A program made the position numbers and the translations under genes. A DNA stretch of 30,300 nt from a virus: UHGV virus genome UHGV-1280366. One strand, given 5' to 3'. The notes under the pieces were generated by a model, which was not told the DNA's origin, did no database searches, and was given only the letters and a program-made list of their open reading frames with translations. This document shows positions 7,103 to 28,375 of this stretch, piece by piece (position 1 is the first letter of the stretch; each line of letters starts with the position of its first letter).

Positions 7103-7258
7103 GGTGGTTATCTCCACTTAGTGATTTTAATCACCACCGCAACGCCAATTACTGGTGGTGAACTGGACAAGGTTGGCGTACCGGCCTAAGTGGTACCGGC
7201 GTCCTTTCGGACCCCTGCCCAGCCCACCATAATTCGGATATAGCTGTGCTTAACGCAT

Positions 7259-7280
7259 AAAAAAACCACGTCTGGCGTGG
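7259..7280 (-). terminator. rho-independent terminator downstream of minus-strand gene 7418-7675
   Basis: CCACG-ccaga-CGTGG hairpin followed on the minus strand by seven T (A-run 7259-7265 on +). Confidence 0.55.
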
Positions 7281-7371
7281 TATGCGCCACTTAGTAACTC
7301 GGGACGCCAATCCCGGCACTGGATTTTGCCAGTGCCCGATTACTATGGCACAAGAGGAGTGCAATGTAAAT

Positions 7372-18077: not shown

Positions 18078-18210
18078 TTTTTGGGACTCCTGGCTGATTA
18101 AGTATGTCGATAAGGCGTTTCCACCCGTTACGTAATTTACGGGTGATTCGTTCAAGTAAAGATTCGGAAGGGCAGCCAGCAACAGGCCACCCTGCAATGG
18201 CATATTGCAT
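18070..18210 (-). CDS. cIII: CIII protease-inhibitor (stabilises CII)
   Basis: MQYAIAGWPVAGCPSESLLERITRKLRNGWKRLIDILNQPGVPKNG is near-identical to lambda CIII as recalled; AAGGAG RBS. Confidence 0.8.
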   Translation of the reverse strand: MQYAIAGWPVAGCPSESLLERITRKLRNGWKRLIDILNQPGVPKNG

Positions 18211-18270
18211 GGTGTGCTCCTTATTTATACATAACGAAAACGCCTCGAGTGAAGCGTTATTGGTATGCAT

Positions 18271-26845: not shown

Positions 26846-27030
26846 ACGCCACAATTCAAACGATACCAGAGCTTCTTATCCAGACACGAGGCAATCAGAC
26901 CGAAGTGGCGAGGATGCTTTCCTGCGCAAGAGGAACAGTGCTCAAGTACAACCGAGACAGCAAAGGCGAGCGTCACGTAATAGTTAACGGCGTCCTGATG
27001 GTCAAACATGGCAAGAGGGGAAGACGATGA
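26842..27030 (+). CDS. ninH: NinH
   Basis: ...YGNQTEVARMLSCARGTVLKY...VLMV resembles lambda NinH HTH protein; overlaps neighbours by 4 bp. Confidence 0.7.
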   Translation: MNATIQTIPELLIQTRGNQTEVARMLSCARGTVLKYNRDSKGERHVIVNGVLMVKHGKRGRR

Positions 27031-27515
27031 GCATAAGAGAACTAAACCTCACCAAAGAACAGCACGATTGGCTGAATGGCTGGCTTGAACTGTGGGGCGC
27101 ATGGGTTTATTCAGGCCGCCTGGAAAAGCGCATGAGCAGCGTAATAGCGAAGTTCATGGAGAGCGTAGAGCCGGGAAGAGTTATGACAAGGCCAATGTGT
27201 AATGATGATGATGGAATGTTGATTTCTCAGGTCGTCGATTCCGTCATGTACATTGACAAGAAAGCCTTTGGCATCCTCCTCAGCTACTACGCTCATGGAT
27301 CTTCCAAGCATGCCATTGCATCTTACTATCATCGTGTCGCAAGACCTCGCAAGATGTTATGCCGTGGCGGCGGGCGTATTCAAAAACCATCGCTCGCAAC
27401 CTGTCGCCGGGAAGTTGACGAAATCCTTAATGCCTCGTTGTTTATGATTTATCCAGTTCTGGATAGTGCGTTTAAAAACCGGAAATGTGTAGAGAAAATT
27501 AAACATGTAGCATAG
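27027..27515 (+). CDS. Q: late-gene antiterminator Q
   Basis: Positioned before pR'/tR' and the lysis genes; WGAW...PMCNDDDGMLIS pattern resembles Q proteins of the phage 21/82 type as recalled. Confidence 0.75.
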   Translation: MSIRELNLTKEQHDWLNGWLELWGAWVYSGRLEKRMSSVIAKFMESVEPGRVMTRPMCNDDDGMLISQVVDSVMYIDKKAFGILLSYYAHGSSKHAIASYYHRVARPRKMLCRGGGRIQKPSLATCRREVDEILNASLFMIYPVLDSAFKNRKCVEKIKHVA

Positions 27516-27519
27516 AACG

Positions 27520-27560
27520 TGTTGACATCATTGAGCAAATGAGCAACACTATTGGAATAA
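27520..27560 (+). promoter_or_regulatory. pR' late promoter / qut region
   Basis: -35 TTGACA at 27523-27528 just after the Q stop; the -10 is not confidently placed. Confidence 0.45.
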
Positions 27561-27562
27561 GC

Positions 27563-27605
27563 TGCCGTTAGTGACTCTTAAGTTGCAACGGTGGCTTTTT
27601 TATTT
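27563..27605 (+). terminator. tR' terminator
   Basis: CCGTT...AACGG hairpin followed by GGCTTTTTTATTTG. Confidence 0.5.
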
Positions 27606-27679
27606 GCACAACAGGTAAGAGCATTGAACCCGCAGACCTCGCGGAATTGGCGAAAGGTGCCGCGCAGTGCTCTTATCGT

Positions 27680-27806
27680 TGTGGTGAAGCTCAATGGCGA
27701 GCTAGCAGATAGGCGATAGTGAAAATACTAGTCATGTAGCTGACCGCCGCGCGTACTGCAATCGGCAGCGCACCGATGGAAGCCGGTTCGATTCCGGCCG
27801 CCACAA
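27680..27806 (+). pseudogene. tRNA-like remnant (acceptor/D-arm-like 5' part and canonical-looking T-arm plus acceptor 3' part separated by about 55 extra nt)
   Basis: T-arm GCCGG-TTCGATT-CCGGC (27782-27798); 7-bp acceptor pairing TGTGGTG (27680-27686) with CGCCACA (27799-27805); D-arm-like GCTC-aatggc-GAGC; ATCGG-cagcgca-CCGAT stem-loop at 27761-27777. Overall length 127 nt is too long for a functional tRNA. Confidence 0.3.
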
Positions 27807-28051
27807 CCCAAACTGAGCCGTAGCCACTGGCTATCCTGAATTCATCAGTGATAGTTACGCTGCGGCCTTCTACACATGACCTTCGTGAAAGCGGGTGGCA
27901 AGAGGCTGCGCTAACAACCTCCTGCCGTTTTGCCCGTGCATATCGGTCACGAACAAATCTGATTACTAAACACAGTAGCCTGGATTTGTTCTATCAGTAA
28001 TCGACCTTATTCCTAATTAAATAGAGCAAATCCCCTTATTGGGGGTAAGAC

Positions 28052-28375
28052 ATGAAGATGCCAGAAAAACATGACCTGTTAGCCGCCATTCTCGCGGCAA
28101 AGGAACAAGGCATCGGGGCAATCCTTGCGTTTGCAATGGCGTACCTTCGCGGCAGATATAATGGCGGTGCGTTTACAAAAACAGTAATCGACGCAACGAT
28201 GTGCGCCATTATCGCCTGGTTCATTCGTGACCTTCTCGACTTCGCCGGACTAAGTAGCAATCTCGCTTATATAACGAGCGTGTTCATCGGCTACATCGGT
28301 ACTGACTCGATTGGTTCGCTTATCAAACGCTTCGCTGCTAAAAAAGCCGGAATAGAAGATGGTGGAAATCAATAA
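28052..28375 (+). CDS. S: holin S (S107; S105 would start at 28058)
   Basis: Near-identical to lambda S as recalled ([41 protein letters not shown]...), dual-start motif MKM. Confidence 0.95.

Follow-up and report, generated by a model that had tools for sequence, protein, structure and literature searches.

What kind of RNA, if any, is encoded by the tRNA-like sequence that lies between the late terminator tR' and the holin gene S in the virus genome UHGV-1280366? The stretch analysed (30,300 nucleotides (nt), hereafter the window) belongs to a lambdoid phage or prophage, and about 450 nt of non-coding DNA between tR' and S hold the element in question. A first-pass annotation made from the sequence alone had described it as a degenerate or interrupted transfer RNA (tRNA), a remnant, or else as a structured RNA of another kind. 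This last description proved to be the nearest to the evidence, whereas the words "remnant" and "degenerate" have to be given up, since purifying selection, seen in numerous compensatory changes, acts on the element and on its insert alike, and since the element occurs in unrelated phage groups and in different genomic contexts. We lean towards regarding it as a tRNA-derived, tRNA-shaped small RNA, not a decoding tRNA, which would serve as a scaffold excised by host enzymes and act in trans.

Structure and covariation of the element

The element spans positions 27678-27810 of the window and its minimum free energy (MFE) fold is a five-way junction (-49.1 kcal/mol, z = -2.55; 5 of 200 shuffled sequences folded equally well). 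This single-sequence signal is modest and becomes decisive once the relatives are added. The parts of the element are listed in Table 1. The first-pass annotation had correctly described the canonical T arm, the D-arm-like hairpin, the approximately 55 extra nucleotides that follow it and a candidate anticodon loop (CAGCGCA) lacking U33. The acceptor pairing that it had proposed is also present, but with 9 base pairs (bp) instead of 7. Stacked on the 5 bp of the T stem, this acceptor gives a helix of 14 bp, whereas a canonical tRNA with its 7-bp acceptor has 12 bp. The tRNA elbow is complete, with a T54-Psi55-C56-R57-A58 loop (R, purine), the G53-C61 pair, G18 and G19, A14 and R15. The anticodon-like loop is not competent for decoding, as A33 and C37 stand in place of U33 and a purine, and the family consensus of this loop is YNK-CGCA. 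The extra arm (X arm) is placed at the junction of the D arm and the anticodon-like stem. It has two stems, a basal one (GCAG/CUGC) and an inner one, together with conserved AUAG and GCGCG-UA strands, and its apical loop measures about 20 nt. The acceptor stem is followed by CCA, which aligns with the CCA of the tRNA-Thr of phage Sf6.

Table 1. Positions in the window of the tRNA-like element, its parts and the features that flank it
Feature	Position	Strand	Remarks
Acceptor stem, 5' strand GUUGUGGUG	27678..27686	+	9 bp with 27799-27807
Acceptor stem, 3' strand CGCCACAAC (27799-27807), then CCA (27808-27810)	27799..27810	+	
D arm AGCUC-AAUGGC-GAGCU	27688..27703	+	with A14, R15, G18, G19
Extra (X) arm, 55 nt	27705..27759	+	at the D/anticodon-stem junction
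Self-complementary hexamer ACUAGU	27727..27732	+	X-arm apical loop; proposed kissing-loop dimerisation site
Unpaired GCGCG, conserved	27749..27753	+	X-arm 3' strand; alignment columns 74-78 nearly invariant
Anticodon-arm-like hairpin AUCGG-CAGCGCA-CCGAU	27761..27777	+	5-bp stem; loop has A33, C37
T arm GCCGG-UUCGAUU-CCGGC	27782..27798	+	canonical T loop, G53-C61
U module, 64-nt hairpin, basal stem GGUAAGAGCA/UGCUCUUAUC	27614..27677	+	abuts the acceptor stem; MFE fold; lambda alignment
Q-like late antiterminator gene	27027..27515	+	open reading frame; PHROG phrog_943 "anti-termination protein Q-like", E = 2.3e-89
pR' late promoter region	27522..27551	+	-35 TTGACA at 27522-27527; homology, aligns with annotated pR' of HK75 and Sf6
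tR', terminator of the short late-leader RNA	27561..27605	+	identical to annotated tR' in HK75 and Sf6
Conserved leader segment, cassette slot to S start	27811..28051	+	near-identical in Sf6, HK75, CUS-3 and HK629; the lambda alignment covers the first part only, about 27811-27850
S holin/antiholin, first gene downstream	28052..28375	+	open reading frame; PHROG phrog_126 holin/anti-holin, E = 2.3e-40

BLAST against phage records found the element with 98% identity in HK75, with 94-95% in Salmonella Skatevirus phages and with 73-81% in gmqsjt-1, in Pantoea phage PdC23 and in a P22-like phage; there are also E. coli strains that match at 100%. Pattern scans of IMG/VR, which used the hairpin as a first anchor and the D arm as a second, independent one, added many more copies. 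Thirty-three distinct sequences went into a covariance model (R1), which retrieved 72 copies (69 distinct) with scores of 130-156 bits (156 bits for the window). These relatives belong to lambdoid, P22-like, Skatevirus and Pantoea phages and to enterobacterial prophages; as two sequence anchors were used to gather them, the most divergent members are probably missing. Among the GTDB representative genomes five matches were confident, one of them truncated (45 bits) and the other four scoring 144-156 bits. They lie in Enterobacteriaceae, with the exception of one contig labelled as a Cellvibrionaceae metagenome-assembled genome, which is near-identical to the lambdoid sequence and has probably been assigned to the wrong bin. 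The pattern hits from Actinobacteria, Vicinamibacteria and Pseudomonadales scored 15-18 bits without a tRNA call by ARAGORN and were taken as chance. Among the 40 matches listed from a BLAST search of 50,697 phage records, in which 169 further records also matched, every full-length match carries the X arm, and none is an uninterrupted version.

In the 69 distinct sequences 97.1% of the cells are paired and 20 of the 37 pairs have changed on both sides, neither value being reached in any of 500 shuffles. Simple column statistics are inflated by the division of the family into two main clades. Sliding the partners as a control gave at most 7 double-changed pairs and at most 47% pairing, and a hand-made alignment presented the same picture. 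The alignment used (A5) was fitted to the covariance model, with the palindromic hexamer described below left outside the model. Covariation is found in the acceptor stem (6 of 9 pairs changed on both sides), the T stem (3 of 5), both stems of the X arm and the anticodon-like stem. Within the X arm, pair 30-83 is CG in 39 sequences, GC in 26, AU in one and UA in one, and pair 39-70 is GC in 37 and UA in 24. Through the independent anchor, the anticodon-like stem was found as AUCAG/CUGAU, AUUGG/CCAAU and AUAGG/CCUAU. The D arm is paired in 98.8% of cells and the GG of its loop (G18G19) is invariant, as is G53-C61, while the T loop reads UUCGAUU or UUCGACU. The non-tRNA loop is itself conserved as YNK-CGCA, with C35 and G36 invariant. 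A tertiary pairing between the GCGCG bulge and the CGCA loop was considered and rejected, being without covariation in an all-against-all column scan that was dominated by the two-clade phylogeny. Columns 18 and 117 of A5 (window 27695 and 27792) change together, U with U and C with C; this co-change of D-loop 16/17 with T-loop 59 could be an elbow contact or merely the two-clade phylogeny.

The apical loop of the X arm carries a hexamer which is self-complementary in all 69 distinct sequences despite changes of sequence (ACUAGU, UCUAGA, UCGCGA, GCUAGC, ACCGGU and, with G-U, UCUGGA). Its positions 1 and 6 are AU in 38 sequences, UA in 28 and GC in 3, and the central, adjacent positions 3 and 4 are UA in 51, GC in 14, CG in 2 and UG in 2. 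Pairing amounts to 100% against 71% in shuffles, with none of 500 shuffles equalling it. Adjacent bases cannot pair inside one hairpin loop. Moreover, in 54 of the 56 elements searched no further copy of the hexamer occurs within 400 nt, and such a copy was rejected as a partner in cis. For these two reasons the simplest reading suggests that the hexamer is the site of an intermolecular kissing-loop homodimer.

Programs that detect known RNAs do not see the element. ARAGORN reported no tRNA gene in the window. After deletion of the X arm in silico (27705-27760), with default settings, it called a tRNA-Arg(GCG) in the window and in one distant relative alike, and in this respect the earlier description of an interrupted tRNA was apt. 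Calls made with relaxed thresholds or in intron mode were inconsistent and were not used. In Rfam, searched with gathering scores and with E-values, the T arm alone was matched, with 10-12 bits where the gathering score is 47. The transfer-messenger RNA (tmRNA) family RF00023 gave 10.2 bits against 47, again on the T arm only, and ARAGORN called no tmRNA and hence no tag peptide. Rfam 15 was also applied to nine related loci representing cassette types and the upstream hairpins described below, with nothing near any gathering score. The first-pass annotation had regarded the lack of a covariance-model hit as grounds for abandoning its reading; such a hit is indeed lacking in Rfam, whereas our own model finds the 72 copies. 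The Rfam result shows only that the family is absent from Rfam and not that the element is unreal.

Two other identities were tried. Protein coding by the small open reading frames over the element (27591-27719, plus strand; 27691-27804, minus strand) was rejected because relatives differ by 1-nt insertions or deletions (alignment columns 22, 45 and 62) and because their substitutions are compensatory in RNA stems. As for a parent tRNA, the arm-deleted sequence matched only generic T arms among the matches listed for the same 50,697 phage records.

Genomic contexts and the upstream hairpin

In the window the stem of tR' is followed by UUUUUU, the element lies downstream of tR' and 240 nt separate it from S, which is followed by R and Rz. 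A strict sigma-70 consensus scan did not call the pR' region (27522-27551). The same kind of scan found no independent promoter or terminator beside the element in the window; with no consensus promoter between tR' and the element, its expression here should depend on readthrough mediated by Q.

The surroundings of 143 elements fall into several classes. A lambda-type late-leader flank like that of the window is present in 65, and in 32 the 9-bp stem is followed by A, CCA and AAG, the examples examined lying in pL leaders. Another 22 share one 3' flank. In the single example read (L216) this flank forms a strong intrinsic terminator, 9 nt beyond the element and ahead of holin genes; tRNA operons similarly have a terminator just downstream. 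Five are the Skatevirus copies. Of the 143, 97 have CCA or ACCA after the stem. The usual place of the element is the leader of an antiterminated operon, either from nutL to N or from Q and tR' to the holin gene. In the pL class 21-25 nt separate its end from the start codon of N-like antiterminators, a true lambda-type N among them, and in the P22-like phage it comes directly after a boxB-like hairpin. The RNase III site of lambda lies at the corresponding position of the N leader. In some of the phages whose pL leader carries the element, the first gene is not a recognisable N. In these places the element is embedded in a longer transcript beside the RNA or cistron that it delimits (tR'-S, nutL-N).

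The Skatevirus copies are the exception, as they form a stand-alone unit antisense to neighbouring tail genes, with a promoter-like site (TTGACA-17-TAGATT) and a hairpin which, as read from the sequence, resembles a terminator. In these phages a 13-bp inverted repeat (CUUAACAUCCAGC ... GCUGGAUGUUAAG) stands directly after the acceptor stem and before the terminator (L125 1646-1710, L236 758-822).

The flanks of relatives in pL leaders (L128 1482-1640, L130, L152) suggest alternative pairings, since CUUUGG just 5' of the acceptor has two possible partners: one CCAAAG lies upstream and would form a small hairpin with it, and the other contains the 3' CCA. In one pL class GGAAUGUUUUGG pairs with CCAAAGCAUUUC over 12 bp, by which the acceptor helix, as read by eye, is extended to about 21 bp; a helix of this length might be a substrate of RNase III.

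Immediately upstream of the element, a 64-nt hairpin (the U module) abuts the acceptor stem. It is a sequence variant of a lambda hairpin (L206 392-455) that bears the probe site of LPR2, a small RNA (sRNA) of the late operon which a 2024 preprint describes as bound by Hfq, expressed in the lytic cycle, seen as a band of about 63 nt and having no known function (10.1101/2024.10.31.621285). The northern probe for LPR2, given in supplementary file 6 of that preprint, maps to lambda 44816-44850, inside the U hairpin of lambda. By our own count this hairpin has exactly 63 nt, and it ends where the acceptor-like stem begins. LPR2 is presumably the lambda U hairpin, in which case the cut in the late leader falls at the site expected of RNase P acting on a tRNA-like substrate. 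The basal stem, GGUAAGAGCA/UGCUCUU(A/U)(U/C)C, is kept in lambda, HK75, CUS-3, HK629, Skatevirus and Jilinvirus while the interior varies, and in Skatevirus and Jilinvirus phages the U module travels with different cassettes. PreS/LPR1 was also considered as the identity of the region and was rejected, as it lies in the early left operon.

The slot between tR' and the pre-S segment is polymorphic across phages. The first-pass annotation had pointed out that lambdoid phages often carry tRNA genes or their decayed remnants here, and Sf6 has a tRNA-Asn and a tRNA-Thr exactly in this slot. Lambda, HK629, CUS-3 and others keep the outer stem and the flanks around different interiors, and the authors of CUS-3 marked "boundary sequences" at the slot. 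The cassette of lambda (L206; 44855-44945) is shorter, with an outer stem GUUGUGCUG/CAGCACAAC followed by CCA, which differs from that of the window by one compensatory change of G-C to C-G, and it is without D-like or T-like loops. Model R1 recognises neither the cassettes of types B, C, D and lambda nor the tRNAs of Sf6; it is the shared flanks and architecture that suggest a kinship of these cassettes with type A, the element of the window. In N leaders of the 933W/mEp234 type (L238, about 330-480; Shiga toxin (Stx) phages) a cassette stands between the boxB of nutL and the start of N, having an outer stem GGUGUGGUG...ACCACACC-ACCAAAG as in the tRNA-like element and an unrelated interior.

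A second tRNA-shaped family (L003 of CUS-3, L004 of HK629, L006/L082, L237 of vB_EcoM-ep3 and L148/L182/L198) comprises types B, C and D as well as copies from a Jilinvirus phage and from pL leaders. Its members have a 9-bp acceptor, a D-like hairpin with the loop GGCUGA, a hairpin at the T position with the loop AG(A/U)UCAGC(A/G) and an interior that ranges from 48 to 224 nt. The nine scaffolds compared are 100% paired, with 9 pairs changed on both sides. GCUGA and UCAGC of the two loops are complementary over 5 nt, and a Watson-Crick contact between the loops may replace the tRNA elbow in this family, a suggestion that stays one because the loop bases never vary. Three contigs resemble a small tRNA cluster in that they carry both kinds on one strand, the second-family element about 145 nt upstream of the type-A element.

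Genes for HNH or homing endonucleases were found near several cassettes (L004 83-595, in HK629; L216 435-920; L128 2090-2590; L126 from 2965), and the one in HK629 lies between pR' and tR'. This proximity may bear on the exchange of cassettes.

A proposed host-processed scaffold and its alternatives

According to the reading towards which we lean, the element would be transcribed as part of the late leader once Q lets RNA polymerase pass tR'. It has kept those parts of a tRNA that are recognised by host enzymes, namely the acceptor helix stacked on the T arm, the elbow formed by the D and T loops and the 3' CCA, and it would be released by the cuts of host tRNA maturation, with RNase P acting at 27677/27678 and either RNase E or exonucleases acting at the CCA. 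Two neighbouring RNAs would be shaped by these cuts, as the 64-nt hairpin RNA upstream, the variant of lambda LPR2, would receive its 3' end and the messenger RNA (mRNA) of the lysis genes a new 5' end. The tRNA body would thus provide a scaffold for precise processing and stability, with the extra arm as its cargo, an idea that agrees with the second family, in which the acceptor, D-like and T-position hairpins are kept around interiors of 48-224 nt. The hexamer of the X arm may join two copies in a kissing-loop dimer. The released RNA would most likely be a tRNA mimic that binds a tRNA-binding protein of the host or of a defence system, and not the ribosome.

Several points weigh against this scaffold. 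Function in trans is its weakest step, and dimerisation is deduced by sequence logic alone. RNase P would be poorly served by a 5' leader in which a hairpin abuts position +1, the acceptor/T stack of 14 bp departs from the canonical 12 and roughly one relative in three, those of Skatevirus and of the "u1" class, has no CCA. In the loci compared no gene for a partner protein is consistently adjacent to the element. Moreover, the ends of LPR2 are deduced from the size of a band and the position of a probe, as the preprint gives them, in lambda, whose cassette differs.

A broader form of the scaffold can be proposed more tentatively, as possible and yet rather doubtful. Natural "tRNA scaffolds" would stand in the leaders of antiterminated operons, carry exchangeable cargos and be excised by the host. 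In the present case the product would be a dimerising tRNA mimic that acts in trans on a tRNA-binding factor of the host, for instance as a decoy for a tRNA-targeting defence toxin or a synthetase, while excision would set the ends of LPR2 and uncouple N or the lysis genes from their leaders. This form covers enterobacterial phages including relatives of lambda, 933W and P22.

The alternative that survives best is a cis-acting processing ("punctuation") signal, the fold of which attracts RNase P or RNase E while the excised piece is functionless. The cuts would split the nut or qut leader and the LPR2-like hairpin from the first cistron, in a manner comparable to the RNase III site of the lambda N leader. 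The usual position of the element between the antitermination site and the first gene agrees with this, as do the distance of 21-25 nt from the start codons of N, the class with flanks extending the acceptor helix to about 21 bp (by eye) and the link to LPR2. Nevertheless, the stand-alone unit of Skatevirus, antisense to tail genes, has no downstream cistron to uncouple, and in the window 240 nt still remain between the element and S. A bare cleavage signal would need neither a conserved X arm nor an invariant CGCA loop, whereas these and the self-complementary loop are conserved far beyond the needs of cleavage. We consider this explanation unlikely, while giving it serious weight.

A regulator acting in cis is improbable. 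It might modify RNA polymerase in the way of the put sites of HK022 or be a tRNA-mimicking translational operator like that of thrS, and it would account for the position in leaders on the same strand, at a short fixed distance from N or the first open reading frame, also in those phages whose pL leader precedes a first gene without recognisable N, and for the class directly before a terminator. The relation to terminators is not constant, however, the element being downstream of tR' here and upstream of a terminator elsewhere; furthermore, the Skatevirus copies stand alone and the ribosome-binding site of S is 240 nt away in the window.

Conservation at the level of DNA, as a recombination boundary, a protein-binding palindrome or an attachment or homing site, is more improbable still. 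The slot is a mosaic junction with the "boundary sequences" of CUS-3, HNH endonuclease genes are near in several loci and the hexamer is also a palindrome in DNA. However, the changes are compensatory in the RNA sense, G-U pairs included, and strand-specific, and the palindrome varies while it stays self-complementary, which a sequence-specific DNA-binding protein would not tolerate.

We give hardly any credence to a functionless pseudogene, that is, a tRNA decayed or interrupted after an insertion. The silence of ARAGORN and Rfam, the missing U33 and R37 and the real tRNAs in the slot of Sf6 would be expected of it, but not the pairing of 97% of cells with 20 pairs changed on both sides, the covariation of the insert itself, the recurrence of one architecture across several genomic contexts and no fewer than four phage groups, or the presence of the insert in every full-length match among those listed; multiple pair types moreover exclude recent copies without independent substitutions. 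Equally little is to be said for a precursor that yields a functional tRNA-Arg(GCG) by removal of the extra arm, for although the arm-deleted sequence is called tRNA-Arg by ARAGORN and the invariant C35 and G36 are identity elements of ArgRS, A33 and C37 are conserved, the acceptor has 9 bp and the acceptor/T stack 14, the sequence of the arm's loop is under selection and we know of no bacterial machinery that splices at position 26/27.

Relation to known RNAs and further observations

The element resembles canonical tRNAs (RF00005; those of Sf6 and the Asn/Thr pair of phage 21) in the order of its arms, its elbow, its 3' CCA and, as regards Sf6, its slot, and it differs from them by the 9-bp acceptor, the 55-nt extra arm, the YNK-CGCA loop and its escape from detection. 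Engineered tRNA scaffolds and tmRNA likewise keep the acceptor/T/D frame and have the centre replaced or expanded by a cargo, whereas here the cargo is at the D/anticodon junction and the anticodon-like arm is retained. In the dimerisation initiation site (DIS) of HIV-1 a 6-nt palindrome is also exposed in a hairpin loop; that of the element covaries so as to stay self-complementary. The stable RNAs "species 1 and 2" of T4 are encoded in the tRNA cluster and have about 120-140 nt. The M3 RNA of phi80 and the C4 RNA of P1/P7 are phage RNAs processed by RNase P (PMC11143913). M3, C4 and the T4 species are likened to the element by description only, as small stable phage RNAs matured by a host enzyme.

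A tRNA-shaped module within a longer transcript beside another small RNA is also found in MALAT1/mascRNA, in plant mitochondrial t-elements and in the tRNA-microRNA units of murine herpesvirus 68 (MHV68), which are eukaryotic or organellar (see PMC1920247). In our case the 3' boundary of the U/LPR2 hairpin coincides with the start of the acceptor, where cleavage would have to occur, and the element, in contrast to those modules, has additional conserved domains, which suggests that it has a role in its own right. The region downstream of pR' is known to host tRNA and sRNA genes (PMC8022706, PMC4104026), among them the anti-sRNAs AgvB and AsxR of prophages of enterohaemorrhagic Escherichia coli (PMC4104026) and, according to the preprint, LPR2 and 6S RNA of lambda (10.1101/2024.10.31.621285). 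These show that small RNAs are expressed from late leaders, but they are short, Hfq-bound and base-pairing, whereas the element is 130 nt long, tRNA-shaped and without similarity of sequence to them. ROOL and GOLLD are homo-oligomeric RNAs associated with phages (PMC12286853); the element is likewise phage-encoded, much smaller and unrelated in sequence, and its oligomerisation is putative.

No Rfam family or informative GenBank annotation was found for the element, and no published description was found in the open literature; the subscription-only literature was outside the search, and a prior description there is possible. It is unannotated in about 200 complete E. coli genomes and in many phage records. 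The leaders from nutL to N and from Q to S are among the most studied regulatory regions in biology, yet a covarying RNA of 130 nt has stayed unannotated there. Annotation pipelines miss it, and the covariance model could seed a new family. If the proposed processing is true, the ends of lambda LPR2 would have a testable origin, the RNase III site of the N leader would have an alternative of RNase P type and the engineered tRNA scaffold would have a natural counterpart. A self-pairing tRNA mimic would be a new kind of phage-encoded RNA and an obvious candidate for interfering with tRNA-directed defences or enzymes of the host.

Where matches carry any public label over the element, it is a misleading one. 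The only labels found were a 58-nt "tRNA-Ser" covering only its 3' part, a coding sequence named "polyubiquitin-A" and coding sequences of "hypothetical proteins" (records PQ186186.1, L125 1587-1644; ON470589.1; and MH321493.1 of phage Skate).

Three other RNA elements were identified in the window by Rfam. The C4 antisense RNA (66 bits; 7151-7234, minus strand) stands beside isrK (67 bits; 7259-7335, minus strand), both above the gathering score, and we take the two to be the RNAs of an antirepressor control region of P1/P7 type. C4 is a substrate of RNase P, and the copy in the window is unrelated to the tRNA-like element. The lambda cIII thermoregulator element RF01804 was found at 18165-18223 on the minus strand with 88.5 bits, and the early left operon therefore runs along the minus strand of the window.

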